Below are positions 1,861 to 56,000 of a DNA stretch of 64,000 bases, piece after piece. Under the pieces are notes generated by a model. That model saw nothing but the letters and a program-made list of their open reading frames with translations, had not been told where the DNA came from and ran no database searches. Origin of the DNA: Stegostoma tigrinum (lineage: Eukaryota); NCBI RefSeq assembly GCF_030684315.1, contig NC_081378.1, forward strand, positions 49,810,851 through 49,874,850, written 5' to 3'. Position 1 is the stretch's first letter. Each line of letters begins with the position of its first letter. The position numbers were made by a program, and so were the translations under genes.

Positions 1861-2051
1861 TAGTGATAATGGGAACTGCAGATGCTGGAGAATCCAAGAT
1901 AACAAAGTGTGGGGCTGGATGAACACAGCAGGCCAAGCAGCATCTCAGGCTGACGTTTCGGCCCTAGACCCTTCGGTCTAGGCCTGAAACGTCAGCTTTT
2001 GTGCTCCTAAGATGCTGCTTGGCCTGCTGCGTTCATCCAGCCCCACACTTT
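1861..2051. mobile_element. Palindromic PLE-terminus cassette (family A)
   Basis: Inverted arms; 13-bp TSD gtcaacaaattct (1848-1860, 2052-2064). Confidence 0.9.
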
Positions 2052-2079
2052 GTCAACAAATTCTCAACCATTTTAAAAA

Positions 2080-8985: not shown

Positions 8986-9005
8986 GGGGGGGGGGGGGGG
9001 GGGGG
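8986..9005. repeat. G20 homopolymer
   Basis: Direct read. Confidence 0.9.
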
Positions 9006-9971: not shown

Positions 9972-9986
9972 TGTGTGTGTGTGTGT
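9972..9986. repeat. (TG)7 microsatellite 25 nt upstream of the start codon
   Basis: Direct read. Confidence 0.9.
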
Positions 9987-10011
9987 CTGTGCATCTTAAA
10001 TACCGGGGACT

Positions 10012-11025
10012 ATGTTCCCAGTGAAGGTTGTGTTTCTCTGTCTTCTGCTCCTTAAGTCCTTGCTTGTCTTGCCCACTGAGCCCAAAGAGGAATTTCTATT
10101 CCGGGACCGCATCAACAACATCGCCGTCAGTACCAGCGGTCAGGTCTTCGTAGCCACTGACAACTCCTTGTATCAGCTGAATCAGGGCCTGGGCCAGGAG
10201 GTGGTCGAGAGCACGGGGCCTGGCCAGGATGGGCCTTGTGAGGAAGAGCATGGTTGTTGTGTCAAGTGGAAAGAAAAGGCCAACGTGAACAAGATCCTGG
10301 TGGTGGACGAGCGTCAGCAGATTGTTCTGACCTGCGGGACGTTGAGGCTGGGGGCTTGTGAGGTTAGGGAGTTGCACAACGTCAGCCACTATGAGAGTGA
10401 CAGGCTCAAGAATGTCGCCCCTGTCTACCCAGAGGCTTCGACAGTTGCCTTTCTAGTAAAAACCACGCGAGTCGATTACTTGGTAACGGCTGTGACTCCT
10501 GTTGGGGAGTCCAGCAAATACTTCCCACCTTCCTGCAAAGGCAACAGCAGTTACTACAATCCCATGAAGGAAGGATTGAACACCATTTTCGTAAGAAATC
10601 CTCGTAGGGGTAACACATTTTTGAGCTTTAATTATGCTGAATTTGGCGACGCAGTCGTAGAGGTGGACGAGCGGACTGCGGACCTCCAGTATGTACAGGG
10701 TTTCCAATGGCAGGAACATATTTATATCTGGCTTAATGTTAACACCTCAGGTCCACAGGTTATCCTCATGAACGTGAAAGAAGATGGCGCAAGTACGACT
10801 TGTACCGGTTTGGGAGCCAACCTGCTCTGCCCTAAGGATAAAAGTCAAACCCTCAGAGTCCTATCCTCCACCGCCTTCAACATCACTTCCTCAGATACCT
10901 TGATGGTCGCGATCTTCTCCGGACAAGGACAGTCTGAGTACAGCCAACTCTGCTTCTATAACATGACTGAGTTTAACACCTACGCCCAGCCTAAAGAAAA
11001 CTACCCCTGTTTTAAGAAGATATCG
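10012..11025 (+). CDS. PLXNC1: Coding exon 1: signal peptide + most of Sema domain (338 codons)
   Basis: ATG at 10012 with in-frame TAA at 9997-9999; hydrophobic leader MFPVKVVFLCLLLLKSLLVLP; Sema motifs; donor TCG|GTAAGT at 11026. Confidence 0.92.
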
Positions 11026-14000
11026 GTAAGTTTTCTAAATGGCAGTTATTTAAAATATATTTTACTGACTATATTGAACCAGCCAAAGCCAGACCAGCAA
11101 AGTGGCTCAGTGATTAGCCCTACTACCTCACAGTTCGATTCCAGCCTCCGCCCACTGTCTGTGTTAAATTCGCAGTCTCCCCGTGTCTGTGTGGGTTTCC
11201 TCTGGGTTCGCCGGTTTCCTCTCACAGTCCAAAGATCTGCAGAATGGGGGGATTAGCCGTGCTAAATTGCTTATGGTGTCCAGGGATGTGCAGGCTAGAT
11301 GGGTTAGCCATGGGAAATGCAGGGATCGGGTAAGGGGGTGGATCTCCTTTGCAGTACTCTTCAGAGGGTCAGTGTGGATTCAGTGGGCCGAATGATCTGT
11401 TGAAGGGGCTACGCTCCAAAAGCTTGTGGTTTCAAGTAAACCTGTTGGACTATAACCTGGCGTCGTGTGATTTCTGACATATTATGTATTCTATGGATGT
11501 TTTCCCTGGAGTTGTAGGTAAAGAGCGTGAAATTACTAAAGGCAGTGTTTACATTTGTTTGACAAGTTTACAGTATGTTGTGTGCTTACGTGACGCAGTG
11601 AGGTGGAATTGTATCAGAGATAATGGGAACTGCAGATGCTGGAGAATCCGAGACAACAAAGTGTGGAGCTGGATGAACACAGCAGGCCAAGCAGCATCTC
11701 AGGAGCACAATTTTCTGATGAAGGGTCTAGGCGCGGAACGTCAGCTTTTGTGCTCCTGAGATGCTGCTTGGCCTGCTGTGTTCATCCAGCCTCACACTTT
11801 GTTGTCTGAGGTGGAATTGCATCTAGTGTTATCAAAAGAAAGCTCATTACATGCATCTAAATTAATTTCAATAACCTGTTCGACATGTTATGACACTTCC
11901 GCGCAGTTGGGAATGAACAAAGACCTATCTGCCCCGAGATAGGGACACAGTACCGACAGTCCACAAGAGCCCACACTAGCTGCACCTTTACTTCATATTA
12001 AGCAGCATATTTAGTACAGTATTAACATTCTGGTCAAAATCACTTGCTTACTCAGATTGAGTGCTTCTTAATCGCATCAGAGGCGTATGCTGGGTATGAT
12101 GCCACAAATGGCTCAATTCCTATCCCTGGCACTTCCGTAAAACATGGTGTGACAACACTAGGTTAGCAATCCAACATTGTCCCGTCATTCCCGAAAACAA
12201 ATGCAGAAGGTGACTGCAATTTTATTTTTCTGTTGCCCCACTCGGCTTCCCAAATGCTGGACAGGAAAATTCGCTGGGACTGAGTGAGAAGGTGCCGCGG
12301 TTGTCTGGGGGAACAGCATCTGATAGCGTTTGATCATCAGTGGACACTATTTCTTAGCCTTTTATTGGCTGAAGTAACAATTAAGGCGAGAGCGAGGGGG
12401 CGCACATCGTTTAAATCTCTTATATAACGAAGTGTGGAGCTGGATGAACACAGCAGGCCAAGCAGTATCTTGTTGTGATTGACTGCGTGCTCACGGCCTC
12501 TCACCGTCCACCCCCAGCCCTTCTGTCTGATCTCTCTCTCTGTCTCATTGCCCAATAGAGCACTCAACTCCCTTGGCCTGTGCCCTTCAGGCCGGCTAGC
12601 TGTTAATTAGACACGCCCTGCCGAAAACGGTAAAATCCAGCCCTTAGTGTTTAGGCTCTAACACCAAGGACTGCACTGAGTGAGCTTTCAGAAATCTATA
12701 CCAGTACTTGACTATTTTCACAACACTAATCTGTTACCAGTGTTCAGTTAATGGTTCAGAATTGTTCAAGGCTCCGTCTCAATAGGAATAGGCTACTCAA
12801 CCCCTCAAGTCTGTTCCACCATTCAATGAGATCATGCGGATCTGTGGCTTCACTCCACAAATCCTCCTTTGGTCCATTTCACTTAATACCTTTCCTTAAC
12901 AAAAATATATATCTATATCGGGTTTAAAATTAACAACGGATCCAGCATCTACTTCTGTTTGTGGAAGAGATTTGCAAAACGCTACCATCCTGTGTGTGTA
13001 GAAGTGCTGTCCAACATCTCTCCTGAACGATCTAATTCTCAGGCTATGTCCCTAGTTCTAAAGTCACCAACCAGTAGAAATAGTTGATCTCTACCTTCTC
13101 TGTCTTTTCATGTTAATATCTTGAAGACATCGATCAGATCACCCTTAACCTTCTAAAGTTTAGAGGAAACAGGCCTCATTTCTATAATCTCTCCTCAAAG
13201 CTTGACGCCTGAAGTCTAGGCATCATTCTTGTAAACCTATGTTGTACTCCCTCTCGGATCCGTATGTCTTTTCTGAGATGTGGTTCCCTGATCTGCTCAC
13301 AATTCTCGAAGTGGAATCTAATCAGGGGTTTTGTATAACTGCAGCATAACTTCTGCATCCTGTATTCCCAAGTCTGTTTGGATATCCACTGTATTTAACT
13401 TCATACCTTCTAGAATAGACCCTGATCTAACCTTTTTTTTCTCCCAAAATAGATAACTTCACGCTGACTTACATTGAACTCCATCTGCCACATTTTTGCC
13501 CAATCGCTAAGTCTTTATAATTTTATGCTATCATCTACACTGTAAAGAATTTTAACTTTGTGTCATCAAAAAATTTGTATACATGGCTTTCTATGCCATT
13601 ATCCAAGTTGTTAATAACAAATGTGAATAATTGAGACCTTAACATAGACCTTTGTAGGTCCCGACTGGTCACATCTTGCAGTTTGATCACATGCTTACTA
13701 TCCCTGCTTTCTGTCACCTATCACTCAATCAATTTCCCAGCTGTGTCAGTAAATTGCCCTCAGTTCCATGGCCTGTACCTTAGCGAACAGTCTCTCGTGT
13801 GGGGCTTTATTAAATGCCTTCTGGAAGTCCTTGTAAACAGCATCCATAGATATTCCCCTGTCCACTATTTTTAATGTAAAATGCAGATTTTTCCTCTCAA
13901 GGGTATAAGCTGGTTTTGTAATGTGTCAAATGTTTCTTTAAATGTGCTGTAATTTACAGTGGACAATCTCTATCTCATCTCATTAAAGTCAGCCTTACTT

Positions 14001-17000
14001 AAATCTAAAGCCTTTAGTAGCTGATTCATGCTTTTAACTTTCAAACATTGAACTCAATCAAGTTATGATCACTATTTGATAAATGTTCAAGCACAATTAT
14101 GTTACTAATTAAATCCAGCTCATTACTTGTTACTAACTCTAATATTGCTTGTCCCCTTGTTGTATCCAGGACATATTGGTGTTGGAAATCATCCCAGCCA
14201 CACTCCACAAATTCATTACCTTCCTGACAAGTGCTTGTCTGCCTCTTCCAATCTAAGTTAGAGTTAAAGTCACTCACTTTGCTATATTTTTGCCCAAATC
14301 TTGCATTTATACAGTCTCGCACTTCACTACCTGGGAATCTGTGCACAGCACTGATTGCAATTTTGGATCCTTCGCTCTTCCTCAACTTCACCTATACATC
14401 TTCCCCTTATTATACCCTCCCTCACCTTTGAAATAATTTTGTTTCTAATCACCAAGGCTACTCCGCCTCCTCTGCCATTTCCCCTGTCCATCCTGTAATC
14501 CTTATAACCTGGTATATTTAGTTACCAATCCACATCATCCTGCAGCCATAATTCAGTGATAGCTATTATAATCCAATCTAACTTGAATTTGTGTCTGCCA
14601 CTCACTTAGTTTATTCCTTATGCATCTTGCATTTGTCTGTAGCTCTCTTGTTTGCGCCATACACTGCAACCTGTCCCTCAGAACTAGTGGGCCATACACT
14701 GTAATCTGTCCCTCAGCACTAGTGGGCCTTACACTGTAAAGCGTCCCTCAGCATTAGAGGGCCATACATTGCAACATGTCCCTCAGCACTGGTGGGCCAT
14801 TCACTGTAATCTGTCCCTCAGCACTGATGCTTTATTCATCTGTTTATCATTTCTCACTTCTGATTTGATCAATCCATGTAGTTTTGTGATAGCCTGTTGT
14901 ACATGAAGTTGGATTTCAGACTGTTTCTTTAAGCGCGGACATGTTGTTTAGTTTTGAAGCTGTATTAACTTGCCCTGAGCCCACGCCCCCACATTAATGA
15001 GTTTACAGTACTTTGACCGCCCTATTTACATTGATCCCCTGCATATTTACAGAATTTCTCATTGCCTTCATGTTGTAGAATCAGATAAACTTAACAAAAG
15101 ACAAGCTGAAGAGTGAAAATGAGGGAAATGATTGGGCTCCATCTCAATCTGTTTCTCCACTGGATCTGTTTTAATTTCTAATTCTATTGGTTATCGATTC
15201 TATTAGAGATAGAAAGAATTGCTGATGCTGGAGTCAGCGATAATGCCATGTGGAGCTGGAAGAACACAGCAGGCCAGGCAGTATCAGAGAAGCAGGAAAG
15301 TTGATGTCTTGGGTCAGGACCTTTCTTTCTGAAGAAGGGTCCCAATCCGAAACGTCCACTTTCCTGCTCCTGTGATGCTGCCTGGCCCGCTGTGTTCTTC
15401 TAGCTCCGCACTGTTATACCTACACTGTTAGCCTTCAAAGAATTCTACGCTTTGCCTTTCTTGCCATTCCACATTGTATGGTGTCACTTGGATATTTTAT
15501 GTGGCAATATGACTTATTTCAAGTTTAGGAACATTGTTCATCCCCCATCCAAAATTTCCCCATCTTCCATCCTCCACGAATGTCAATTCATCCAAAATCC
15601 TATTGCCTTTTTCCTAACTCACACCAAGACCTAGTCACCCTTCACTCCAAGCTTGCTGACTAGCTCAGAATATCCAGCTCCGTTTCTGTAATCTCCTCCA
15701 ACTCTTCAAGACATCTGCACTGATCCAATTTTGAGGCTCTTGCCTTCCTGATTCTCTTTGCCATTTTATTCGTTGCTGTACCTACAGCTGTCTTGCATCT
15801 GGAATTGGCTCTCTCAATATCTCCATGTCTTTGTTTTTGTCTTTGGCCAAAAGTGACCCACAAGTTTTACATGCTTATATAGCTCAATAAAAATTAAGCT
15901 TGATATTGCTACTGTGTAATGGATATTTCACAGCACTGATGCTGCTACACAAATGCAGATTGTTATTTTACTCATAATCAGTTGGAAGATAAAGTCAGCA
16001 AACTGGTTAAAATAATGTCATATCTGAAAATAAATAAGGAATGCTTTTATCACATAATAAAATGCTACAGGGTGAGAAATTTGCTCAGAATTCGATATTC
16101 TTTGATATTATTTCTGTGAAGTTCTTTGGGACACTGATGACTTGGGCTTTTGGTGCTCTTGAGAGTTGCCTTTGGCAGAGGATGGACTCCATGGAAAAGA
16201 TCATCTGTATCACTTCAGTCAACTAAATAGCAGAAATATAAGACGTAGAATGTTGAAGTAGAGTATTTTCTATCTTTATTGACAGTCAGACAGGAATGTG
16301 GAAGGGAGATGGATACAGAATGGTGAAATGTCTCACTTTCAAATGGGATTACAAAATGATAGTTGTTGTAAGTGAGTGATTTCCTCTTTAGGCAACCCTG
16401 AAGGGCAAATTTACTGAGTTATGAAAATTGTTATGAACTTGCTTATCCAACAAAATGATTTATTGATGCTAAAATGTCTAAATCTTTGTGGCTTTTCTCT
16501 TTGTGTCGTTTCCTGCTGTTGTGTAAAGTCATGATTCTGAAAGAGTTTGAGCTCTGCAGAGCTCTGTCCAGTCTGATGATACCATGTAGCTTTGGGTGGA
16601 GAATGATTTGGACCCTGACACAGTCTCTTACTGGAGACACAAGACTTATCTCTTGTTAGTAATAGTTAATATGGCTATGAGTTAGTATTCTTAGTTACTC
16701 TCCAGTAATAAACTATACCTTATCATTTTTTTAAAAAGCCTCTTATTCAAGGTCGATTCTCCATCAACCAACAACTCTTTAGATTAGTGTAGAATGTAAG
16801 AAATAGGAGCAGGAATAGGCAATTCAGCTCATTGTGTCTGCTCCTGCTACATAGGAAGGAGGATTGGTGACAGAACTCTACCCAGCCATAAACTACCAGT
16901 GCTTCAGACCCAGACATGACACCAGAACATCTCAGAGTATCAGTGGTGAGCATGGCACAATTGCTACACTTGTATTACATCAGCAGGGCAATTAGGGATG

Positions 17001-20000: not shown

Positions 20001-23000
20001 TGACCCCATTTCTAGTCACATAGCCTCCAGAGAAATAAAAAGAAATCACCTCATTCCTGTCCCTAACTTTTTAACAGTTCCCCCTAATTCTAGACTGACC
20101 TACAACCACCTTGTCAAGACCATTCAGGATCTTAGACACATCAAACAGGTCACTTCTCACTCTCCAGTGGCAACAAACCCAGCTTGTTCAACTTTTTCCC
20201 TAAAACAACGCGCATATTCCAGGTATCAATCTAATTAATGTCCTGTAAATTGCCTCTGATGTGTTACAGATTTCCTTAAATGAGAAGAGCCGAACTATAC
20301 CCTATTCAAGATGTGGTGGCCCCAACAATGCCCTGTATAACTATAGTGTAACATTGTTACTTTGTAAAATAAATCATGCATGAGATAAGAGTGTAACTGG
20401 CTAGGCAGTATTTATTGTCCATTCCTAATTGCCCAGAGGGCAGTTAGGAGTCAACCACATTGCTGTGGGTCTAGAGTCACATATAGACTGGACCAGATAA
20501 AGATGGCAAATTTCTTTCCCTAAAGGACATTTGTGAACTATGTGCGTTTTTTCCACAATAGCTAATAGCATCATGGCCAATATCAAATTCTTAACTCCAG
20601 CTTTTTCTAAAAAAAAATTAAATTTAAATTCCACCTTCTGCTATGTCCAGAAGGATTCAAACCCAGGCCCCCAGAACATTACCTGGGTCTCTGGATCAAA
20701 AGTCCAGAAATAACACCACTAAGCCGTGGCCTCCTTATTTATGTTCAATAGTATTTTTACTTTTATGTTCAATAGCATCCCACTAGCTTCCTGATTCAGT
20801 GCTGCACCTGCATATTGACATTTTGTGACTCAAACACAAGGGTATCTAAAGCCCTCCGCATCTCAGAGTTCTGCGGTCATTCTCCATTTAAGTAATCCTG
20901 TACATTTTGCATTCTTCCTGACGAAGTGAAAAACTTCACATTTTTCCACATTTTCCATCTGCCAGATTTTAGCACACTCATCCAACTTATCCATGCGTGT
21001 CCGCCACTTCCTTAAGAATGCGTCACAACATGCTTTTCACGCATCTTGTGAATTTATCTCCCATTCCTTCACTTTCTGCATCTCAGTCAAGTAAGTGAAT
21101 TTTAAAAAGCGAAAGCACAGCACAGATCACTGCAGGACTCCACATATCATATGCCAATCAAACACCTGTTTATGCTCATGCTCTGTTTTCTACTGGCCAG
21201 CCAATGTTTGAGCCATGCTAATATATTATCCCCCACGAACTTCTATTTTCTGAAATAGCTTTTGGTGTGACAACTTATCAGATGCATTCTTGAAATCCTA
21301 GTGCAGTATTGTGTACAGGTTCCCCGTTATCTGCAACACATATCACTCCTTCAAAGACCTCCGAGAAATTGGTTATAAATGATTACCTTTTGAAGAAACC
21401 ATGCTGACTCTGTCCAATTATCTTGAGTTTTTCTAAGTGTGCTGCTATAAATGTACCTATAATTTAAGATTGATTTGAACACCTCCCCAAGATAGACATC
21501 AACCTAACTGACTGGTAGTTTCATGTTTTCAGCCTCCCTCTCTCCCTCCTTGACTAGACTTACATTTCTGTATGTAAGTTCTGAATGTAAGTCTAGTTTT
21601 ACATTTGCTGCTTCTCAGTCCAGTGGAACCTATCCTGAATCTACAGAATTTAGGATAATTGACACCAAAATATCTACTTCCTCATTAGGCACCTTTTAGA
21701 ACCTGAGGATGAAATCCATCTGGGCCTGGAGATTTGTCAGACCACAGCTACAACAGCTTTCTTATTACCACTTCTCTTGTATTTGTGATATTGTGACATT
21801 CTCATTTCCTTCCTTCATGATCTACAGCTATTACTGGAATGATTACTGTATCCTGTACAGTGAAGATAGAAATAAAGTATTTTGTTCATTTCCTCCGACA
21901 TTTCCGTATAATCTACTATGAACTCTTTGTTCTCACTTAGGATCAACTCTCACTTTATTTAATTTTTTCCTTTTTAAATACCTGTTTAAAAACTCTTATT
22001 GTCCATTTTTATATTCCTAACTGGCTTGCTTTCATGCTCTGCTTTCTTCCTCTATTGTAATTCACTATCATTCTCTATATTCTGACCAGTTGTCTGAGCT
22101 CCATTCATCTTTGTGCAATGACGGGCTTTTTCCTAAAGCTTGATGATTTCCCTATCTTCTTCAGATAACCACAGATTGTGGGTGTTACTTTTAGAAATTT
22201 TCTTTATAGCAGAAATATAGTTATTCTGATCATTCTGAAATATCCCCTTAAGTGTCTATCACTGACTGTCCATTGATGTATCCCTTAGCTTGATATATTC
22301 ATTCACTTTAGCTGACTCAGTTTTCAGGCTTACTGGTTGTCCTTGTCTAAGTTTAAAATGCTAATCTTAGACCCAATCTTCCTTCTATCAAACATCATAT
22401 TCATTTAGGGGAGGAGGCAGCCTAGTGGTATACTTCATAGTTAATCCAGCGACCCAGGTTATGTTGTAGGGATCCAGGTTTGAATCCTACCACAGCAAAT
22501 GGTAGACTTTGAGTTCAATTAAAAATCTCAAATTAGGAGTTAATAATGACCATGAATATATTGCAAATTGTCAGGGAAAACCCATCTGGTTCACTAATAT
22601 CCTTTAGGGAAGGAAACTGCCATCCCTATCTGGTCAGTTCTACGTGTGTTTCCAGCTCTATAGCAATGTGATTGACTCTTAACTGTCCTCGGGGCAATTA
22701 GAGAAAAGTAATAAATGCTGGCCCAGCCAGTGACACCTTCATCCTATGAATGTATTTTTAAAAAATATATTTTTTACCTCTGGGTACCTTAACTGTGAGG
22801 TCATTAATTCATCCTGTCACATTACACAATACCAAATCTAATATAACCTGCTGTCTGGTTGATTTCAAAATGTGCTTCTTTAAGAAATGATTTCAAAAGC
22901 ATTCTACAGACTGAAAACAGAACTGCGGATGCTGCAAATCTGAAATGAAAGCAGAGATTGCTGGAGAAACTCAGCAGGTCTGGTAGCATCCATGGACGGA

Positions 23001-32000: not shown

Positions 32001-35000
32001 CTTAGCAAGGGGCTCACCTTTGTCCCCCTACAACCACACATCAACCAATACCAGTCACGGTTGGACATAGAGCAGTTTTTCCGCCGCCTTCGCCTCCACG
32101 CCTACTTCTTCAACCGGGAGCCTAACCCTCCCTCCACTGACCCCTTCACCCGCTTCCAACACAAGTCCTCCTCCTGGACACCACCCCCAGGCCTCCTACC
32201 CTCCCTCGACCTCTTCATCTCCAACTGCCGTCGAGACATTAACCGCCTCAACCTCTCCACCCCTCTCACCCACTCCAACCTCTCCCCCGCAGAACGGGCA
32301 GCCCTCCGCTCCCTCCGCTCCAACCCCAACCTCACCATCAAACCCGCAGACAAGGGTGGCGCAGTGGTAGTATGGCGCACTGACCTCTACATCGCCGAGG
32401 CCAGACGCCAACTCTCCGATACCTCCTCCTACTGCCTCCTGGATCATGACCCCACACCCGAGCACCAAACCATCATCTCCAACACCATTCACGACCTCAT
32501 CACCTCAGGGGACCTCCCACCCACAGCCTCCAACCTCATTGTTCCCCAACCCCGCACCGCCTGTTTCTATCTCCTTCCCAAAATCCACAAACCTGCCTGC
32601 CCTGGTCGACCCATCGTCTCAGCCTGCTCCTGCCCCACCGAACTCATCTCCACCTATCTGGGCTCCATTTTCTCCCCTTTGGTCCAGGAACTCCCTACCT
32701 ACGTCCGTGACACCACCCACGCCCTCCACCTCCTCCAGGACTTCCAATTCCCTGGACCCCAACACCTCATATTCACCGGGCCCCCAACACCTCATATTCA
32801 CCATGGACGTCCAGTCCCTGTACACCTGCATTCCGCATGGAGATGGCCTCAAGGTCCTCCGCTTCTTCCTGTCCCGCAGGCCCGACCAGTCCCCCTCCAC
32901 CGACACTCTCATCCGCCTAGCGGAACTCGTCCTCACACTCAACAACTTCTCTTTTGACTCCTCCCACTTCCTACAGACTAAGGGGGTGGCCATGGGCACC
33001 CGCATGGGCCCCAGCTATGCCTGCCTCTTTGTAGGTTACGTGGAACAGTCCCTCTTCCGCACCTACACAGGCCCCAAACCCCACCTCTTCCTTCGGTACA
33101 TTGATGATTGTATCGGCGCCGCCTCTTGCTCCCCAGAGGAGCTCGAACAGTTCATCCACTTCACCAACACCTTCCACCCCAACCTCAAGTTCAGCTGGGC
33201 CATCTCCAGCACATCCCTCACCTTCCTGGACCTCTCAGTCTCCATCTCAGGCAACCAGCTTGTAACTGATGTCCATTTCAAGCCCACCGACTCCCACAGC
33301 TACCTAGAATACACCTCCTCCCACCCACCCTCCTGCAAAACTTCCATCCCCTATTCCCAATTCCTCCACCTCCGCCGCATCTGCTCCCACGATAAGACAT
33401 TCCACTCCCGCACATCCCAGATGTCCAAGTTCTTTAAGGACCGCAACTTTCCCCCCACAGTGATCGAGAACGCCCTTGACCGCGTCTCCCGTATTTCCCG
33501 CAACACATCCCTCACAACCCGCCCCCGCCACAACTGCCCTAAGAGGATCCCCCTCGTTCTCACACACCACCCTACCAACCTCCGGGTACAACACATCATC
33601 CTCCGACACTTCCGCCATTTACAATCCGACCCCACCACCCAAGACATTTTTCCATCCCCACCCCTGTCTGCTTTCCGGAGAGACCACTCTCTCCGTGACT
33701 CCCTTGTTCGCTCCACACTGCCCTCCAACCCCACCACACCCGGCACCTTCCCCTGCAACCACAGGAAATGCTACACTTGTCCCCACACCTCCTCCCTCAC
33801 CCCTATCCCAGGCCCGAAGATGACATTCCACATTAAGCAGAGGTTCACCTGCACATCTGCCAATGTGGTATACTGCATCCACTGTACCCGGTGCGGCTTC
33901 CTCTACATTGGGGAAACCAAGCGGAGGCTTGGGGACCGCTTTGCAGAACACCTCCGCTCAGTTCGCAACAAACAACTGCACCTCCCAGTTGCAAACCATT
34001 TCCACTCCCCCTCCCATTCTCTAGATGACATGTCCATCATGGGCCTCCTGCACTGCCACAATGATGCCACCCGAAGGTTGCAGGAACAGCAACTCATATT
34101 CCGCCTGGGAACCCTGCAGCCATATGGTATCAATGTGGACTTCACCAGTTTCAAAATCTCCCCTTCCCCTACTGCATCCCTAAACCAGCCCAGTTCGTCC
34201 CCTCCCCCCACTGCGCCACACAACCAGCCCAGCTCTTCACCCCCCCCCACACTGCATCCCAAAACCAGTCCAACCTGTCTCTGCCTCCCTAACCTGTTCT
34301 TCCTCTCACCCATCCCTTCCTCCCACCCCAAGCCGCACCCCCATCTACCTACTAACCTCATCCCACCTCCTTGACCTGTCCGTCTTCCCTGGACTGACCT
34401 ATCCCCTCCCTACCTCCCCACCTATACTCTCTCCACCTATCTTCTTTACTCTCCATCTTCGGTCCGCCTCCCCCTCTCTCCCTATTTATTCCAGATCCCT
34501 CTCCCCATCCCCCTCTCTGATGAAGGGTCTAGGCCCGAAACGTCAGCTTTTGTGCTCCTGAGATGCTGCTTGGCCTGCTGTGTTCATCCAGCCTCACATT
34601 TTATTATCTTGGATTCTCCAGCATCTGCAGTTCCCATTATCTCTGCTTCTCATCTCTTCTGTTTTCTTCATTGTCCTCAACGGGAAAATATTAAAACAAA
34701 TTCTGACTTGATAGGTGCTGTAGGAGGTGAAGATAGCAAATAGTATGTTGGCTATCATAGTGAGAGGAGATGAGTACAGGAACAGGAATGTCTAGGTGCG
34801 TTTGTGCAAGGGCCTTGGTTTAGCCCAGTTGGATGGATGGTTGGTTTGCATAAAGCACTGTGATGTCAACACCATTGGATTCAGTTCCTATCACTGGCTG
34901 CAGTTAACATGAAGGACTGTCCTTCTCAATCTCTTCCCTCGCCTGAGGCATGCTGACCCTCAGGTTAAACCACTGCCAGTTGTCCCTTTCCTATGAGAGG

Positions 35001-38000
35001 GCAGCCCTATGGTCCTGGTAAGATAATGATTACCTTACTTGCAAGATTACAACAACCACCACATTCTCCAGGGTAATTAGGAAGGAAATAAATGCTGGTC
35101 AGTCTGCAATGCCCAAATCCTGTGAACAAATAAAAGAAACATTTTCTCCCTGCCACTTCTATATTTGCCCTAATAACATGTACTTGAGTTTTTCCAACAA
35201 ACATCTTATTATGTCTTCAGAAAAATTCCTCGTCATTTCTGCTGCACTCACGTATTAATCTGTTTCCCCATTCAGTTATCTCTTAAATAAAATCCATCGG
35301 TTTTGTCAGCGTGAACTCTCCTCTGCACGATTTATGCTGGATGTCTGTGATCAACCTATATATTTCTGAAAGCTCATTGTGAAGAGACAACAGAGGGACA
35401 GCAGAAGAGAAATAGAGAGGGTTACAGAGCAAGAAAGGCAAAGCAAGAACAAGACAGGGAGAGCAATCAGCTTATGAAAGAGGCAGTAGGAGAGCGTCAG
35501 CATGGGTGACAGAAACAGAGAAAAAAGTGGTTAAAAGAAGAGGGATACAGAAATAGAAAGAGAAGAAACAGCGTGAGAGGGAAATGGAAGCCAAGGAACA
35601 GATAAATGATTGTTATTAAGCATTTAATTTTCTATGATTTTCCTTCAGCATTTCAAATTGTATTGTTTATAGTTTTCTTATCTTATATCATCACTTTTTT
35701 TAGCAACTGAAGCAAAATTTATCTTCAATCAACAAGGAAGCTGTGTTTAAATATCCCGGACTACTGTCGGTATCAGCCAGAGTTGTGAAAGATTGGATTG
35801 TCTTATTTCTCGGAACAGATGATGGGCAATTAATTAAGGTCAGAATCGATGCTGGTTACATTTATCCCCAGAATGCAGTATAACTGGCCCGAAAACCAAT
35901 TGCAGGCTGCCATCTGTCTATTCATTTGAGTGGCAGCTCGCAACTCAGGAATGGAAGAGTCGCCATTAACATTGACCAACACCCAGAACAGTGAAAAGTG
36001 ACTTTTCCATCCACCACTTCACTCTGTTAAAATGTGGCCTTCAAACACGCACTGCCTTTGCCTGATGTTAAAGTGAGAAGGGAGTGATAGGATTGCGATG
36101 ATGGCCTCATCTTACCCTGCAACCCCAGCACCCCCACCCCAAGACCTGCTGCCGGGTCAAAATCTGCCTGTGCCCCGACAGTAATATGATGGAGTGGAAA
36201 TAGTGAGTCACGAGCTTGCATTCCCGGCTCACAGGATTAGCCAGCCAGTGATAGGGAATCACTGCAGGCCTGGAGATTGTTGTAGGGATTTGAACACTGA
36301 ATCCAGGTTGACATTCTAGTGCAGTTCTGAGAGAGTGCTGCCCAGAAAAGATGTAAAACCAAAGCCCTGAGCAGGTGGACATAAAATATCCCATAGCGCC
36401 CTTTTGAAGAAGAGCAGGCATTTTAACCCCCGTGTCCTATTGATCACTCCATTGTGAGGAATAGATCAGATCCACTGGCTATTATCACATTCTTTGTGAG
36501 TCTTTAATGTGCACAAGTTAGTTGTCATATTTGCCACAATATTTTCATGACAGAAACTACAGTTCCGAGCCTGTGAGAAGCCTGTGATACGGAAAGCATT
36601 GAAAAACAGTCATTACCTATGTCTCTGTCTCTCTCTTTTCCACACCCTGCGTCTAAAACGTAACCAAATCTTGGAAAGTTCCTCCAATCAATTGTTGGAA
36701 TTGACTGGGTGAACTGATCTCAATGGGGGAAACCCGTTGATCAACATCAGTGATCTTCTACAGGTAATATAACAGCATGCAGTTCATTGACAATATCAGT
36801 AACTCACAATATTACAAACCATTGTTTGGACATTACGCAACTGTAACTACTGGTTATCTGATCAATTATTTCGTTACGGGCCAGTTAGCTCAACCAGCTG
36901 GCTGGCTTGTTTGCAATGCAGAGTGGCACCAACACATGGGTTTAATTCGCTTGCTGGGAGTGGTCCTGCCTGCTCAACCATGCCTCATGACCCTCAGGTT
37001 AAATCACTGCCAGTTATCTCCTTCTGGGACAAAAACAGAAGTTGCTGGAACAGCTCTGTAGGTCTGAAGAAAAAAAATCTGTGAAGGGTCACGGGACCCG
37101 AAACGTTAACTCTGATTTATTTTTCTTTATGGATGCTGCCAGACCTACTGAGCATTTCCAGCAACTTCTGTTTTTGTTCCTGATTTACAGCACCCGCAGC
37201 TCTTACGGTTTTTTTTAATCTCCTCCTGGGAGACTGTCCTCCAGGAACAATGACAACTTTACTGCCTAATCAGATCATTTTCTAATACAATATACAGCGT
37301 TATTAGAACCAACCAGCTGTGGTTCCCCTTGTATCTTTACATATTCAATTTTGCTTAAATTCAAAATAACTAAGTAAATGAAGAAGAAGGATTACATTAA
37401 TATAACACCTTTCACAACGCTGGGATGTCCTTGAGTGATTTACAGCCAGTAAAGAATTTTCAAAGTGTACACACTGCTGTCATTTCGGAAACTGGATCAA
37501 CTGGGAACCTCAGCGATGAAACTGTTGAGGCGAATTTATTACATTATCATTTCTTTGCAGCTTATTCTGGACAAATCCCTAAAAGTAATTCGTCCAATTG
37601 TTCTGGCTGATTTGGAGAGTGAAAGCCCAATTCATCACAATGTGATATTTGATCCATTGGACCAAAATTATTTGTACCTCGCATCTGAGAATGAGGTAAG
37701 CTAATGATTTCCTTGTCTATCACAGCATTGCTATTTTGCATGCAATAATTTATTCTTGAGATAGAGTGTAACTGGCAAGGCTGGTTGCCTGTTGTCCATC
37801 TTGAGTTGCCCTGAGGAAGCTGTGTTTTAACCCACTGGTCACTGTTTTAATGTAATTGGGTGTCTATCTGCGCTGTTTCAGATGGCATTTTGGAGCCAAC
37901 CACATTGACATCAGACTGGACTCACATGTAGGTCAGATGGGTCAGGAGGGCAAGTTTCCTTCTTTAAACGCTAATTAGCCTAATATATGTGGATCAGGAA

Positions 38001-44000: not shown

Positions 44001-47000
44001 TTAAAAATACAGTGTTTCTATCTATTGATTGTATATTTGCAGTTTTTATGCTTGCATTCCATAGCATATTTCTTCATACTGCTCCATACTAAATTGCTCC
44101 ATACTAAATAGCCTACTCACTACATGAACCTGCCATTCTTGCTAAAGTCACTGCACCATTTCCTAAAGCCCCTGTTTTTATATTCTTACTCTTAACTCCA
44201 AACGAGGTTTCTGAATACTAAAATCCAACACCAACCCTTGGGATATCCCAAGTCCAACCTTACAACACTCCAAGAAATGCTCATTAGCCCTGAATCTCCC
44301 CAGTTTTGAGCCCAGAATACATGATTCCAATGCCAGCGATGACCACCAGAGCCATGCACACGGTCAGATGATGCACATGCCATCAGTCAGTGTGACAGGA
44401 ACCTACTGCAGGAGTGAGCCTCTGTGTATTCAGCCTCTGGGCAGTGGCAATAAAAGGTAGCAAAAGCAGCGACTTCGAACCAGGTGGTGGTGAAGAAACG
44501 TGAAGCCCACAGGAAGGTAGAAAATAAAACACAGGGAAGGCCAACAGCAACAAAGACCAGCGTTTCCATCTCAAGACTGATGGGTAAATGTTGCTTTACA
44601 ACTTCAGCTTTAATATAGGAGATTGTCCCAAAACAGCAGCTTGTAATAGAAGGCACTGTGCTTAGGTTGGAATATTAAAAGATATAGAGGGATTGGTCAG
44701 GTGGGCAGGCCAGTGGCAGATGGTATTTAACCCTGATAAGTGTGAGCTGATGCCCTTTGGAAGAAGAAACGGGATGAGGGAGTAATAAGGAATGGCAGAA
44801 CATTGGTTAGGTTAGAGGAACAGAAGGATCTTGGGTTAATTATTCTCAGGTCCCTGAAGTTGGCAGAGCACATGAATATAGTAGTTAAGGAAGGCATGCG
44901 GGACACTTGCTTTCATCCGTCATGGCATAGAGAATAAGATCCAGCAGCAATGTTGGAGTTGTACACACCTGAAGTACTGTATGCAGTTCTATCATGTCAC
45001 TACAAGAAGGATGCAGTAGGACTAGAGGAGTTACAGAGGAGATTCACCAAAATGTTGCCTGGGATGGAGATATAGAGCTTTAAGGAGAGACTCAAAGACT
45101 TGGCTTGTTTTCTTTAGAGCAGAAAAGACTGAGGGGAGACAAGACGGAGGTGTAAAAGATTATGATAGGTATGGACAGGGTGAATAAGGAGCAGCTGTTC
45201 CCCTTGGTTGAGGGGTTAAACACGAGAGGTCATAGCTTTAGGGTAAGGGGCAAGGCATTCAGAGGGGATTTCACTCAGCGCGTGCTGGGAGTCTGGAGTG
45301 CACTGCCAGGGAAGGTAGTGGAAGGCTGGAAAGCTTACAACCTTTAAAAATATTTGGATGAGTACCTCAAATATCATAACATTCACGGGTATGGACATGT
45401 GTGGTAATTTGGGGTTGGTGCACTTTTGGTCATAGTTATATCGATGCAGATTTGAGGGACTAACGGGCCCTTTCTGCTCAGTGTGATTCTATGAATCTAT
45501 TCCCGAATGACGTTTATAATGGGGCCACCTTTCCGGGCAATGTGACCACATGGGCAGCACCATCTCTCCGACAGGCAGCTGCTGTCCTGTTGCTTGACAG
45601 TGACACAGAATGATGGCAACGTGTTCCTGTCGGCGCTCGCTAACTGCGCAACTCAGTAGTGCCATTGACGATAAATGCAACCTTTTCTGTCCATGTTGTG
45701 ACATTTCTTTTGGAAGTAGTTTGAATTTTTCTGTTCATGCCGTGACATTTCCCCTGCAGCAAGTTTGATTGAGACAATGTATGAAGATTGCCCTCAGGCA
45801 ATGGAGATGCCTTCTAAAGTATTCGTCTTCTTATGCCCCATAGGTGAGAAGGATAAAAGTGGCTAACTGTACACAATACAGGTCGTGCACCGATTGTTTG
45901 TCTGCACAGGATCCATTCTGTGATTGGCACGTTGTGGAGAAAAGGTCTGTTTCAGCTACAGAGGCACTTAAAAGTTCAATTACAGTCTTACAAGATATTA
46001 CTCACATACCATTTGTGTTGCTCTGATCCGTAGCAAAATAAGAACAAAACTTTGAGATGGAGTAATCTATTTGTCGCAAAAAGCCTTATCCTCTTTAGAT
46101 TCGCTCATTTTTGGATTGCCCTACTTCTGCCACCTATCTTAGTCTTTCTCTCCATTCTCAGGATAACAATCATTTGTATTCACTGAATTTCCAATTCATG
46201 TGAAATTTCAAAATGGCCTACTTTGAAATTTATTGAGATCCTGATCAAAATGGGGGATTTTATTTTAATTTCTTTGGTAATAGCTGTTGCTGGACCATTT
46301 ATTAATGTTACATTGAAACAACTCCCTCAATATAAAAGGTATTTTTAAATTTTATTTCTCCCCACGTTTTAATGTAATGTTTATGTTTCATGTTACGTAT
46401 ATTTTTTGTCACTCATATTTTCCTTTTATTAAAAAATAGCCTTGTATTCTTGGGTGTCGGCTAGTCATTCAAGTGGAGGAGCATTCAGAGAGGCTGTAGA
46501 CCAGACTGGTTAAAGATGGTAACAAGGTGTGGAGCTGGATGAACACAGCAGGCCAAGCAGCATCGGAGGAGCAGGAAAGCTGACGTTTCGGGCCTAGAAC
46601 CTTCATCAGAAAGGCCTCTGATGCTGCTTGGCCTGCTGTGGTCATCCAACTCTACACCTTGTTATCTCAGTTTCTCTGGCATCTGCAGTTCCTGCTGTCT
46701 CTGGTTAAAGATTATGACTCGTTTGTTTTGGGATATCGGTGCCCTGGTTAAGTCTCTACGACAAGATGAAGTTTACTTTAACTCAATCAAATAGAGCAGA
46801 AGTGCTTGTTCAACACCGTGGGAATGATTGGCACCTTATCATACGCCTGTCTAACACCCCTCTCATAATTTAAGCCCAGGGATAATTCTGGTCAACCTAC
46901 ACTATACTTCCTATGCTATACTGTCAAGGATGCTGCCTGTGGAGACTGCCACTAGTCAACTCAGCTTGACCCATGGCCAGTGAGAACGTTCAAGGACCAA

Positions 47001-50000: not shown

Positions 50001-53000
50001 CCTGTAACTCGGCTCCTTATTTTTTTATAAACCTCAATTAAATCTTCCCTCAGCCTTCAGTTTTCCAAAGGGACCAACACCCCTGGCAATGCAACTTTTC
50101 TTCATAGCTGTAATTCTCCCACGACCTGGTAATGTCCTTGTAAATTCCCTCTGTACTCTCTTCAATGTAATCATCTCCTTCTTACAAGATGAGCAAAACT
50201 GCACACAGTATGCACACCAGAGCCTTGCTGGTGTTTATACAGTTCCAGTGTAGCCTACCTGCCTATTCCGTGTCTTAGCTAAGTATCCCATTTACCAATT
50301 CTTAACCACTTTGTATAGCTGTCCTACCTTCCGCAATTATTGCCTTTATCAGTCAAGGCATAGAGGTTAAGAGCAGTGAGGCTATGCTGGAACTGTATAA
50401 GACATTAGTTAGGCCACAGCTACAGTATTGTGCGCAGTTCCGGAATCCGCATGCGAGGAAGGATATGATAGCACTGGAGGGGGCGCAGAGGGGATTTACC
50501 AGGATGTTGCCTGGGCTGGAGACTTCCAGTTCTGAAGAGAGATTGGACAGACTGGGATTGTTTTCCTTGGAGCAGAGAAGACTGAGTAAGGCCATGATTG
50601 AGATGTATAAGATTATGAGGGACATAAACAGGGTATACAGGAAGAAACCTATCGCCTTGATAGAGAGATTAGTGACTGGGCCATAGATTTCAGGTAAGGG
50701 GCAGAAGGTTTAGGGGAAATGTGGGGAAAATATTTTTCACCCAAAGGGAGGTGGAAGTTTGGAGCTCACTGTCTGTAAGCGTGGCAAAAACTCTCACACC
50801 AGTTAAAAAGTATTTAGACATGCTCTTGTGATGCCATAAGACCAAAAGACAAAGGAGCAGAATTAGGCCAATCAGCCCATCGATCATGTCTGATATGTTT
50901 CTGAACCCTATTCACACGCCTTATCCTGCCCAAGGCATGCAAGTCTATACCAAGTGCTGGAAAATGGAATTCAAACATTTAGGTAGTTGTGTTTGACCGA
51001 TGCTGACTTGATAGGCAGAAGGACTTTCTCTTGTGCTGTAGCCCTCTAGGACTCTATGACATATGTTCCGAGGCCCTTCAGTTCCTCTGTACATCTGTGC
51101 ATGTACCTCACACTTCCCCACATTGAATGCTATTTGCCACTTTTTGCTCACCTGAACAGTTTAGTGCTATTTTTCTGCAGTTCACAGCTTCCTTCTTCTT
51201 CATCACATGATCAATTCCTGTATCATCTACAAACTTTGTAACCATAACCCCTGCATTCAAGTCTGAGTCATCATCCAAGATGAATTAGTCCAACTGCAGA
51301 AAATTCCTTTTGTAATCTACCCAATTTCAAATCTAGTCACCATCACATTGCCCAGATTAAACCAGGCAAATCAGAAATCCCGCTAAGTGCGACCATATGA
51401 GCTGCAGGACACAAGGTGCTGACATAGCTCCATTCCTTACAAATTAAACTCATAAAAAAGTGAAAACTTTGCTTTTATGTATCTTTATTTTAGGAAAAGC
51501 GACAACTAGGAGGTGACCAAAAGAGGTATTTAAATATCATGAAGAGGTTTGGCAGGATAAAGATAGTGAAGATTATTAGGGAAACTTAAAATAGCTTGCC
51601 TTAAATTTAAGACAGTCACTAAGAAAAAAGTGGTTAGAATTTGGGAATCATTGCAAATTACAGTCATGGAGTAAGTGAATAAAATAACACAAGATAACAA
51701 AGTGTGGGGCTGGATGAACACAGCAGGCCAAGCAGCATCTTAGGAGGACAAAAGCTGATGATTAGGGCCTAGACCCTTTTCTGATGAAGGGTCTAGGCCC
51801 AAAACATCAGCTTTTGTGCTCCTAAAATGCTGCTTGTCCTGCTGTGTTCATCCAGCTTCACACTTTGTTATCTTGGATTCTCCAGCATCTGCAGTTCCCA
51901 TTATCTCTGATCACAAAAATAACACAGTTGTATTTAACAAGAACTGAATAAAAGGATGAGGGAGAAAGGAATGGAAGGCTATGTTGATACCTTTAAATGA
52001 AGAGAATGGGAGGAATCTTGCATGGAACATAAAGACTATCCTAGACCACTTGGACCAAATGGACTATTTCTACATTCTACGTAAAGACACTATGGAAATG
52101 TTGTCGTTGCAATGTCTTAAGCCTGTGGTTTCATTCTGTGACCGTATTTTCATGCGAAACTTTTTTTCACTAGCTCTTTACAGTCGAAGTAACGTCAAAA
52201 TTCAACAATGTCATTCAACAAAACGCAACATGTACACTGACGAATGTTGGAAACAAGAAAGTCATTTGCACAGGCAACTTCACCACTGAATGTCCCTGCA
52301 ATGTTTCCGAGAACCACGCTCAGATCAAAGAGCAGCCAGGTACTCAGCCAACACTACTTTTAATTCCAGCTGGAGTGCTCAGGTTTTAGGAAATCCTTGA
52401 ACTGATCAAAGTTGCTGACCGTCCTGCAAAGTAGAGGCTGTTCAAGTTTGAAAATAGATAGAGGAAGGTCCTCTATTTAGCCCATTGTCAAAGCTTTCCA
52501 CTTGTTGCAACAGTATTACTGTTTAATCATTAGATTTACAGCCAATGAAATACTGAAATCCTCCTTGTTCCCGGTGTCCCCTGATTTTAAACCAGCCCAT
52601 GTGGCGGGTTCGACTGGTTAAAATTGTGGTAGGTGGCGCCCAGGGCACTTTGCTGCCCCATCACCGTTCTAACCTCCATGATTCTGACAGTGTGGAGCTG
52701 CCCATGGCAGGCAGGTGGGCACCTCATTGAAATGAGATAGTTGCAGCCCAAAGATGTTGGACACCACACTGCCATTTTAACACCCTGGGTTTGGAGGCCG
52801 CAGAAGCTGTAAATCCTCCAGTATAAGATGGTGACATTCAGCATGGAGAGAGGAGAGGGACAGGTATGGGTGGCCTAGAAGAGCAGAAAATCCCTTCCTG
52901 GCAAAAAAGATACCTTGGGGCCTTTTGATTTTCCCCGCAGGATTTCTGTCTCTTCTACTCCACTCCACAACACCTGTCCCCTCATCAACCATATTGGAGG

Positions 53001-56000
53001 GACTATTCCCTTCTGCCTATTGATTTCCCGCTGTTCTGATTTCAGAAAATTCATTGTGTAATCTAGCCGATTTCAAATCTGGTTACCACCACATTGCCCA
53101 GATCAGTAAAAAGAATTCAAAACAATCCTGACGGAGGGAAGCACAGAAATATGAATGAAGTCTGGGTTTTAAAGAGGGTTGGGCCTGAGACCCTGAAACC
53201 ATTTGACCCCATCCTGAGATAATGCAGCGCCTCACATTTTGCAAAGTGAGATGCCTTTAACAGATGCTTCTTGTGTGTTCCTTGTAGATCCAATGATTAT
53301 TGAGGTGTCTATTAAATCTGGCTCCTTGAATTTTGACAGCCAGTCCACAGTCCATAACTGCTACAAGATTGCAACGTCTCAGCAGACAAACACTCCGTAA
53401 GTGTGGCACCTCATTTAGATAAAGTGAAGCCTGTGATTTAGTCAAGGAGAAGCAGAGAAAAGTAAAATCCAAATGATTTCTGTAAAGCATTTGTACTAGT
53501 CACTAAAAGCACCTGTATCTTCTGTATTATTGAGCACTCGAGGAATTTAGGCACTGCTTCAGGCTAGGATTAAGTGCAAGATCGGAGTCTTTACAACAAG
53601 CTCCCTTCTACTAATAGGACAAGGCTAAATTGGAACTGGTCCTTTCTGTACTGGCCAATCAGGTGAGGGATGTGACCACACTGAGTGGCTACTGATACTT
53701 ATGGAAATCTATGTTCTGTCGTCAACGTAGTTGTCGCATTGATTTAATTAATCTACCCTGCATTCCTAAACATTGGGCATTGCCAGTTAATTTGCTAACT
53801 GTCCATGTTTGAGAACTGAAGCAGAATAATTAAACGAGTGATTTGCCAAAGGTACTTGTTTCAGACAGTAGTAGCTCAGTAGTAGCACTTTCACATGTTA
53901 TAATCCCAGACAAGACTGCCACGTTTTTGGTATGCTCTGGTTAGGGGCCAATAAGGTTTCGCTTAAAGTGGATGAAGTTTGAGATTCTAAGTACTTAACA
54001 AGAGAATAAAGTCACGTGGCTCCTGGATTTGATCAATCAAACAAGTTTATTATATAAAGTTAGAATATAAAAATAATTCACATTATGTGTACAACTCATA
54101 CTTGAACATTCAGGATTGACATCAGCTAAATATGAATTAACATTGAAACTGTGATCAAGATCCCTAGAGATTGAACTTTAATTGGTCAAATATGTCAAAA
54201 CAGATGCGACACAGATGTTACTGACCTTTGAGTCACTAAATCCCATTTAAACCCAAGAGAACAAGGTGTAGAGCTGGATGAACGCAGCAGGCCAAGCAGC
54301 ATCAGAGGGGCAGGAAAGCTGACGTTTCAGGCCCAGATCCTTCTTCAGAAAACTGCATCTGCAGTTCCTACTATCTCTGAAACCCATTTAAACCCAATCT
54401 CTTTTACAAAGGGTTCAAATTCTTCCATTTCAAAGATCTAACTTTGGAATGCCCTTGAAATGTTTCTGACTCAAATGCTTCAATCACTGCTCATTTAAGC
54501 TCTTCCCCAGACACCAGATTCCCCACAGCTTGTGATACAGCTACCACCCTATTTCTCCAAGCTTCAATCAATCTCAACAACTTCAAGGAAATGTTCATTT
54601 TAAGGGCTTCTCTCTGACATTCTTGGCTGCACTGAATCGTCAAAGGCTCCAGAGACTTTTCTTTTCCTAATTGCCAGGAGTCTGCTAACAGCTTCAGGCT
54701 GATTGAAGCCATTTCTTTGCTCTAATACTTTTCCAGTTTCAAACCATAGCTTACTTCTCCCAGCGAACACTCAGATAAATTTAAAACACAGAGTATTCCT
54801 AAACTCCACTAATCTCCATGACAACATAGCCTGCTCTGGGCTACTCATAATCTGAACTTTAGGCCTTACAGAATTCTTTACAGCCAATTTGGATCAAACT
54901 CCCTTGTTACTGAAAACTTTACAGATCCAGTGAATTAAGTCACCTTACTGGTTTTACTGTTCTGTCTCTTGTGATTCTATATAATAAATATGATTAGCCT
55001 TCTGAATGGTCATTTATTTTATGTCTCTGACAATCCTTAAAGCCCAGCACATTAATTATCTTAGTTTCTTAACCCCTGAAAGCAACATTACTTGAACCAC
55101 TAAGTACCTTAGACTTCAGTGTTTTGATTGCAGTTATCCAATTTTGTCCTAATTGACTTTAATTTTGTAAGTCAGGAGTTAAATTACTAAAACACACAAA
55201 TCTCTGAATAAATATTCACAAAGCACATCTGAGTCAGGCAGCTAACTCTCGCTCAGAAGCAATATACAATGTCAATGTTTCAGTTCAGTAGGCCTTTTTA
55301 GCATCCAGGCCATTGACTTGAATGTTAACTCTGTTTCTCTTCACAGAGGCTGCTTGGCTCAGTGGGTTTTCCAAGCCCTTTTTTAGTTCCCAGTCCCACT
55401 CCTGTGACTTAAGCCAGGCTGTCAATTTCAGTACAGTACTGAGGAAGTACTGCCCTGTTGGAGGCACTCAGCGGATGTGATAAATCCCATGGGGAAAATG
55501 ACCAACAGTGTACCATTTAGCTAACTAGCATGTACCATATCCATCCCATTATCAACACATCCAAAGGGATGTAAGTCTTTGGAATTTTGCAATCCAGAGA
55601 ACTGTGGATGTTCGGTCATTGAACAGATTCAAGACTGAGATTGATATCTTTTTGGCATACAAGAGAGATCAAGGTTTATGGGGATGGTAAAGTAAGTGGA
55701 ATTGATGGAAAAGATGACCAACACATGGGCCACATTGGATGAGAACTAGGCCAGGTGAAATAACTTACAACAGAACCATGGTTCAAGAGAAATATCGTCT
55801 TCTTTACTCATTGGAACCAGTTGAGGAGAATGTTGTGTGAGAGTTGTCATGCAAGATTATGCAGGAAAAACAGTGACCTGATTCCAGCCTGTTCCTTCAG
55901 ATTGGAAGTCCTTACTATGTTATATAAACCAGCTGGGACACTGGTGGTTAATGCAGGAGAGTGTCCATGTCCCAATGTTGTTATGCTGTACTTTGGTGTT

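Follow-up and report, generated by a model that had tools for sequence, protein, structure and literature searches.

Insertions of Penelope-like elements (PLEs) typically include an inverted 5'-truncated copy and a one-sided tail of 30-40 bp (Craig et al. 2021, PMC8557442, Fig. 2), and palindromes have been described at their head-to-head junctions (Arkhipova et al. 2013, PMC3846280). In Schistosoma PLEs, pairs of minimal hammerhead ribozymes on opposite strands, 100-700 bp apart, were read as truncated PLEs (Cervera and de la Pena 2014, PMC4209133). The origin of the tandem and inverted structures and of the tails was called undefined (Craig et al. 2021, PMC8557442), and the sections of a recent biochemical study considered here state that an in vivo trace of hammerhead cleavage was not found (Frangieh et al. 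2024, PMC11167929). Here we analyze 64,000 nucleotides of Stegostoma tigrinum DNA (NC_081378.1, positions 49,810,851 to 49,874,850), hereafter the window, which belongs to contig C33 of a 3.2-Gb genome and holds nine short palindromic inserts, or cassettes, made of PLE terminal-repeat pieces.

An earlier note, written from the letters of this DNA, had described nine inserts, in each of which two pieces of a PLE terminal repeat lie in opposite orientation. All nine are present and measure 122-220 bp, with the two pieces joined head to head and their 3' ends facing outward. The note's six clear target-site duplications (TSDs) were likewise found (11-18 bp), supporting single insertion events, along with two degenerate ones and one insert without a convincing TSD. 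Repeat coordinates take the C3 nucleotide of the CUGANGA hammerhead box as +1 (window position 34517 in the long element described below). On this scale one arm stops at +125..130 and its partner at +86..95, a difference of 34-42 nt where 35-40 had been proposed. The three families said to share this design correspond to A/B (A and B being 83% alike), C (70-73% alike to A/B) and D, which aligns over a 13-29 nt stretch only. The cassettes are as follows:

1862..2051, long arm - (+6..128, with an internal deletion), short arm + (+10..86): family A cassette; exact 13-bp TSD at 1848-1860/2052-2064; no CUGANGA.
11615..11807, long arm - (+34..129), short arm + (0..93): family A cassette; 17-bp TSD with 1 mismatch.
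15205..15420, long arm - (+4..128), short arm + (-2..91): family B-like cassette; no convincing TSD.
22912..23130, long arm -, short arm +: family C cassette; degenerate 13-bp TSD with 3 mismatches.
29228..29412, short arm -, longer arm + from CUGAUGA: family D cassette; degenerate 11-bp TSD with 2 mismatches.
37031..37216, short arm -, long arm +: family C cassette; 14-16-bp TSD with 1-2 mismatches.
46519..46702, short arm - (about -4..90), long arm + (+41..128): family B cassette; exact 12-bp TSD.
51690..51909, short arm - (+7..95), long arm + (-6..129): family A2 cassette with the recurrent CCCTT/AAGGG junction; exact 11-bp TSD.
54257..54378, short arm - (-2..93), 24-nt long-type arm + (+105..128): family B cassette; 18-bp TSD with 1 mismatch.

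A longer PLE in the same window offers a natural reference for these repeats, with reverse transcriptase (RT) and endonuclease regions upstream of a 3' pseudo-long terminal repeat (pLTR):

31956..34645, +: family A PLE, 5'-truncated and frame-split, with RT, CX4CXXC linker, GIY-YIG-type endonuclease and 3' pLTR with tail.
34515..34546, +: minimal type I hammerhead of the pLTR, with CUGAUGA at 34517, a helix II of 4 bp, palindromic ACGU replacing helix III and a predicted cut after 34544.
34606..34645, +: tail; it separates the two clusters of the bimodal 3' arm ends, the short ones (about +90..95) and the long ones (about +125..130).

The earlier note had spoken of an intact PLE family; the long copy in the window is not intact, being 5'-truncated and having its frame broken by a short internal duplication. 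Its RVT_1 match (E 4e-5) is below the Pfam cut-off, and its linker reads CNHRKCYTC (CX4CXXC) upstream of the GIY-YIG-type motif. Because this motif fits the CX2-5CxxC pattern of the RT-endonuclease linker by which the Neptune and Nematis clades are defined (PMC8557442), the family A parent matches a Neptune-type PLE, as judged by the linker motif alone. Endonuclease-matching frames precede the family A and B ends by 200-350 nt, family C ends lie behind frames with 32-35% endonuclease matches, and family D has such a frame (37.6%) upstream at 1 of 16 loci (L302). In families A/B the two 3' end sites (window 34606-34645) each coincide with a similar TTATCT motif, the spacing being about 35 nt, and the ends of targets frequently have 1-4 bases in common with them.

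Our preferred reading, to which we give a probability of roughly 60%, is that the cassettes are doubly 5'-truncated insertions of Neptune-type PLEs, each built afresh at its landing site by two-strand target-primed reverse transcription, with no master cassette. Arms were counted in fourteen 100-kb blocks of the genome (1,354,101 bases, about 1.35 Mb) plus the window; the blocks were partly chosen, as lying beside the window or being rich in junction matches, and are thus not strictly random. A second sample consisted of 278 kb of locus flanks. Among the 284 A/B arms of the blocks and window, adjacent pairs comprised 60 head-to-head, 3 tandem and 1 tail-to-tail, in agreement with the earlier description of a very abundant, stereotyped product of PLE retrotransposition; in the second sample all 14 pairs were head-to-head. 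Outside the window, 48 of 54 pairs were shorter than 260 bp (about 35 per Mb, with 0-10 pairs per block), and a rough extrapolation suggests on the order of 100,000 cassettes genome-wide. The pairs grade continuously into forms of 470-800 bp.

The 3' ends of the arms are bimodal (about +90..95 and +125..130), and within a pair a long 3' end is combined with a short one, a rule counted in families A/B, C and D. The 60 pairs comprised 51 long+short, one long+long, no short+short and 8 eroded, so that 51 of 52 scorable pairs follow the rule. Solo arms (84 long, 71 short, 9 eroded) set the expectation at 50% long+short, which gives p about 1e-14 for 51/52. The second sample contained 12 long+short pairs among 14, the other two being short+short; family C showed 12 of 13 scorable pairs (one short+short, and 2 eroded besides), family D 9 of 9, and pairs with the AGCT junction described below 16 of 18. 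A TSD score of at least 8 was reached by 41 of the 60 pairs, compared with 2 of 60 controls taken from displaced flanks. At 62 well-defined sites the TSD measured 10-18 bp, with a mode of 14, and the empty-site bias was mirror-symmetric: sequence beyond the left edge is rich in A, and that beyond the right edge is rich in T and poor in A, with the base immediately next to either edge biased by the method. Tiny inverted remnants beside solo arms gave no signal (4 of 69, against 3 in controls).

The layout itself is not new: the published inverted units of endonuclease-bearing PLEs share with the cassettes a head-to-head 5'-truncated copy, a one-ended tail, a TSD around the unit and junction palindromes, and the layout has been described for PLEs in general (PMC8557442, PMC3846280, PMC4209133). 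The cassettes are like these units in their endonuclease association, head-to-head copy, one-ended tail and variable TSD, and differ in that both halves are usually shorter than 135 nt and very numerous. What is added here are measurements, namely the pairing rule, a boundary at helix I and a junction excess at the cut site; the portions of the published descriptions drawn on here hold no such counts. Literature searches outside subscription journals and supplements turned up nothing on such a structure in sharks or on junction counts.

From the structure of the cassettes we infer the enzymatic steps of the preferred reading. A dimeric RT-endonuclease would nick both target strands about 14 bp apart, and each 3'-OH would prime one cDNA, one from the outer and one from the inner start site. 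The template would mostly be the same RNA or an RNA of the same source locus, and sometimes a different one; this clause is included because arm concordance is high, as a cDNA folding back on itself would also predict. Run-off of the cDNAs would take place where the RNA has its 5' boundary, at its self-cleaved end (+29), or before that; the cDNAs would then anneal via CCCTT/AAGGG, AGCT or chance matches, and be filled in. Loss of one cDNA would leave a solo arm, and longer runs would yield the 470-800 bp and full-length forms. Two subunits acting on one RNA would account for both the strict pairing and the concordance. The scheme recalls LINE-1 twin priming, in which cDNAs primed by the two target strands join through microhomology, producing a 5' inversion inside one TSD. 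There, however, the template of the second cDNA is an upstream part of the RNA that does not overlap the first, whereas the two arms of a cassette start at fixed sites about 35 nt apart and cover one and the same 90-nt stretch.

A biochemical counterpart is the protein of an anole PLE, Poseidon, which in vitro nicks and extends both strands, uses two RT start sites bounding the tail, is predicted to form a dimer and acts on an AT-rich target (PMC11167929). It belongs to the Poseidon clade and not to the Neptune type, and hammerhead cleavage was dispensable in vitro (PMC11167929). The sections of that study considered here report no RNA-seq reads at the cut site (PMC11167929), whereas the junction counts presented below peak at the predicted cut. 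From the pairing rule and this junction peak follow two precise predictions that the existing in vitro system can test, and the joints likely record two-start RNA copying and the position of the ribozyme cut.

Junction diversity was assessed from the sampled blocks, the locus flanks and five exact junction patterns. The 60 pairs fell into 54 end-coordinate classes, so that most junctions are unique; the earlier note had held that a unique junction in every copy would mark the copies as dead-on-arrival truncation products. Two types recur. Type 1 (CCCTT/AAGGG) was found as 228 exact 34-mers and 272 exact 28-mers. Type 2 lacks a loop; its centre, AGCT at +29..32, directly follows the predicted hammerhead cut GUC of families A/B, and it gave 1224 strand matches, i.e., at least 612 loci. 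In families C and D the predicted cut is at GUU and CUU, respectively. Loop-free junctions at other 4-base palindromes were found at 108 loci for CTAG (+13), 34 for ACGT (+24) and 21 for GGCC (+56), the counts at CTAG and ACGT tolerating CpG decay. The excess at +29 bears indirectly on the predicted self-cleavage of the hammerhead.

Both recurrent types were examined locus by locus. Seventy type 1 loci were reduced to 51 by keeping one representative of a 17-fold multiplied insertion and by dropping loci 176 (complex), 186 (the same insertion as 185) and 216 (misaligned). In these 51, the tail was on the loop-less arm in 28 (plus 2 eroded), on the loop arm in 17 (plus 2) and on neither in 2. 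Since the tail occurs on either arm of the same junction, type 1 cassettes cannot all derive from one master copy. The 20 type 2 loci, selected for matching on both strands, had unrelated flanks, mostly 10-23-bp duplications, and four repeat haplotypes. Both junction types sit on built-in microhomologies. Identical junctions at unrelated loci, which the earlier note proposed as a sign of self-propagation, thus exist but give a false positive in that role, because the type 1 tail is found on either arm, type 2 junctions occur on four haplotypes and both coincide with microhomologies.

These results bear on the idea, put forward in the earlier note, that the palindromes are a non-autonomous MITE-like (miniature inverted-repeat transposable element) or retrozyme-like class, transcribed and re-inserted as a unit. 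Exact junctions common to hundreds of loci and the narrow size (48 of 54 sampled pairs below 260 bp) are what such a class would show, but we consider it very improbable and largely refuted by the 54 end-coordinate classes in 60 pairs, the placement of the tail on either arm of one junction, and the occurrence of the AGCT junction on four haplotypes with unrelated flanks. The variable TSD length and the continuum to long forms argue in the same direction, as do the lack of intact hammerheads (0 of 9) and the folding of the antisense arms as one hairpin. The sole set of cassettes sharing flanks, 17 of the 70 type 1 loci, is one insertion multiplied together with at least 300 bp of host DNA. MITEs are uniform copies with fixed termini and a single internal sequence, and they carry the fixed short TSD of a DNA transposase superfamily, which differs from the 54 end-coordinate classes, unequal ends, either-arm tail and TSDs of 10-18 bp seen here. 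Non-LTR retrozymes are, like the cassettes, non-coding and derived from PLEs, with a type I hammerhead and a TSD longer than 4 bp (PMC7229834; 10.64898/2026.07.22.740005). They are head-to-tail tandems with one complete ribozyme per unit, whereas the cassettes are head-to-head and hold at most one complete core, with none intact among the nine of the window. Retrozymes are also expressed as small circular RNA.

The multiplied insertion (L201, L210-L215 and L231-L270; contigs C9, C10, C13 and many small contigs) consists of an inverted arm and a mini tandem within a 15-bp TSD. Its multiplication suggests a segmental duplication that is large and dispersed, or else a gene array, and it inflates the junction counts. 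A further pattern, in which the tail runs into the 5' part of the element, gave 337 exact matches, of which 30 loci were examined (L271-L300; it also occurs in the C13 and C33 blocks). Most of these are mini partial tandems that run from the pLTR to about +220..285, back to about -50..-130, and on to a second hammerhead-bearing end, with a unit of about 290-370 nt and junctions that vary between loci. It is these mini partial tandems, not the palindromes, that resemble non-LTR retrozymes, whose mean length in one chondrichthyan is 363 bp (Li et al. 2026, 10.64898/2026.07.22.740005).

To what extent the two arms are copies of each other was assessed in 92 pairs (51 type 1 and 41 random pairs with a TSD). 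Arms were discordant for two common subfamily alleles more often than expected from mutation: 13 of 82 pairs against 3.2, 18 of 75 against 2.9, 16 of 75 against 2.9 and 10 of 68 against 2.6. The excess was located at sites 44, 77, 78, 87, 83 and 36, with none at 35, 45 and 84. The arms of the window cassette 11615..11807 differ at the diagnostic sites 77-78 and at 0 of 46 other sites, and locus L174 combines one A-type with one B-type arm that differ at six diagnostic sites. A single source thus accounts for both arms in most cases; in some there were two sources, or the arms were converted later.

A single tail-started cDNA could also give two concordant arms by snapping back at a small palindrome and copying itself, an endonuclease then resolving the hairpin and removing one tail, on either arm. 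High arm concordance and the recurrent CCCTT-loop-AAGGG junction, a foldable hairpin, agree with this account, and the literature lends it precedent: self-priming was inferred from junction palindromes (PMC3846280), and endonuclease resolution was proposed for the tail (PMC8557442). We nevertheless regard this main rival as unlikely. In 28 of 45 loci the short arm carries the loop, so trimming would have to strike either arm; short+short pairs are nearly absent even though 46% of solo arms are short; and arms of two subfamilies were found inside one TSD-flanked insert. The two 3' ends also match RT start sites seen in vitro (PMC11167929). Furthermore, the commonest recurrent junction type is loop-free, and we favor priming from both target strands because loop-free 4-base junctions, we infer, could hardly be primed by a single strand folding back.

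Several observations weigh against two-strand priming, or against parts of it. Short+short pairs do occur (2 in the second sample, 2 of type 1, 1 of family C and 1 of type 2). Arms differ by 8.9% within cassettes, compared with 11.2% between them, and rare alleles were common to both arms in 25 cases versus 279 in which they were not. Young type 2 cassettes carry matching haplotypes in 19 of 20 cases, with 9 differences in 1019 sites. The discordance between arms is concentrated in older copies, and later gene conversion could have produced it. The excess at +28..30 is weak in the random samples, at 8 ends (2.7 per nt) against 2.0 per nt on one side and 1.2 on the other; because the folded ribozyme has its 3' edge at +29 as well, a stall could mimic a cut. 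Finally, start-site use in vitro did not differ between the strands (PMC11167929), and the strict pairing was not reproduced there.

The 5' ends of the arms show a second regularity. Among 227 arms at least 85% identical to a long copy (of 264 outside the window), 62 begin in the 10 nt from -6 to +3, compared with 3 in the 30 nt from -36 to -7, and from +4 to +60 the ends amount to 1.0-1.8 per nt. The pile-up sets a sharp boundary, located 1-6 nt upstream of the CUGANGA core. Among loci selected for an exact core, all 30 of family C (30 of 30) retain at most 6 nt of native upstream sequence, and 13 of 16 in family D retain at most 8 nt. The boundary is sequence-independent, because the native bases upstream of it differ among A1, A2 and B and because families C and D show the same boundary. 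Run-off at an RNA 5' end would give such a step; an RT stop signal would be the alternative. Non-templated T addition at the boundary was rejected, as TTTT, ATTT and CTCT are native to A2, B and A1, respectively. A splice acceptor would fit family C (AG just upstream) but not A/B. No cap-derived extra G was evident on reading the type 1 loci, for which no count was made, and L214, used to look for full-length 5' ends, recovered the segmental duplicate and nothing else. In contigs from four presumed-RNA runs of another organism, tail-to-+0 back-joints were present, possibly from genomic tandems, in a type of data that cannot show starts or ends.

The same boundary would be expected if the mobile unit were a single arm (about -5..+129), i.e., a solo pLTR with an internal promoter, transcribed in the manner of a short interspersed element from just upstream of the hammerhead and serving as the main cassette template. 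The sharp boundary in all families and the short exact-core copies of family C (30 of 30) agree with this, an internal promoter is known from Drosophila virilis Penelope (PMC2377424), and internal RT initiation makes the RNA 3' end irrelevant (PMC11167929). In D. virilis the start lies further upstream, before an intron ending at helix I (PMC4209133, PMC2377424). Long family C copies exist, however (178 exact matches), which also weakens a short-only subfamily of family C that had been considered. The haplotype spectra of long and short family A copies do not differ significantly (p=0.16), and a full-length RNA whose 5' pLTR is the point of run-off accounts for the boundary just as well. We hold a single-arm source to be improbable; it concerns the origin of the RNA only and is compatible with priming from both strands.

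A more far-reaching version of the two-strand reading can be put forward tentatively, at somewhat less than even odds. The cassettes would be a fossil record of the PLE integration cycle, comprising on the order of 100,000 events, in which outer and inner starts fire as an obligate pair by one dimeric enzyme from opposite target strands. Transcripts would begin at the helix I edge, and the minimal hammerhead would self-cleave in the germline, leaving the at least 612 loop-free junctions exactly at the cut.

The label of hammerhead cassettes given to the inserts in the earlier note was not confirmed. With a strict descriptor of the minimal hammerhead (CUGANGA, helix II with G10.1-C11.1, GAAA, palindromic 15.2-16.2, UH and helix I), none of the nine cassettes contained an intact ribozyme on either strand. 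The descriptor matched at 94 and 34517 in the window and at 52 places in the 1,354,101 sampled bases, compared with none in 20 Markov control sequences. On reading, one arm of each of the cassettes at 15205, 46518 and 54257 retains the core bases, with defects in its helices. PLE hammerheads are minimal type I ribozymes that have G10.1-C11.1, a palindromic helix III and, ahead of helix II, a bulged base (PMC4209133). The dual hammerheads of Schistosoma PLEs resemble that of the parent repeat in their minimal type I form and palindromic helix III, and the cassettes in lying as pairs on opposite strands (PMC4209133); most cassettes, in contrast, lack one or both cores, and the part of that report considered here contains no junction analysis. 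The shared part of the two antisense arms folds as one long hairpin. Folding two core copies gave an alternative duplex instead of an active dimer, a result uninformative on activity. An Rfam scan returned no match to a hammerhead family and four sub-threshold matches to microRNA (miRNA) hairpins, which we dismissed as generic hairpins. Given such weak miRNA-family matches in Rfam, palindromes of this kind would be mis-annotated as MITEs or miRNA hairpins.

The window contains further PLE pieces. At 1-187, a 99%-identical family A solo arm (88-187, with an intact minimal hammerhead) lies inside a family C arm, with an apparent 8-bp duplication. A 19-nt short-end piece in direct orientation (43294-43312) is situated just past the tail of the element at 43313-43757. 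Additional PLE fragments and solo arms, from families B, C and D and absent from the earlier note's list, are located at 38148-39066, 39763-40749, 19710-19895, 18896-19017, 11381-11480 and 31671-31780. Outside the PLE sequences, a short tandem array with a 35-bp period occupies 14656-14825. A long open frame on the + strand (10000-11256) is similar to a plexin Sema-domain exon, with Plexin A as the best match (E 4.9e-11) and Plexin-C1 as the longest, and later cassettes may sit in introns of this plexin-like gene.

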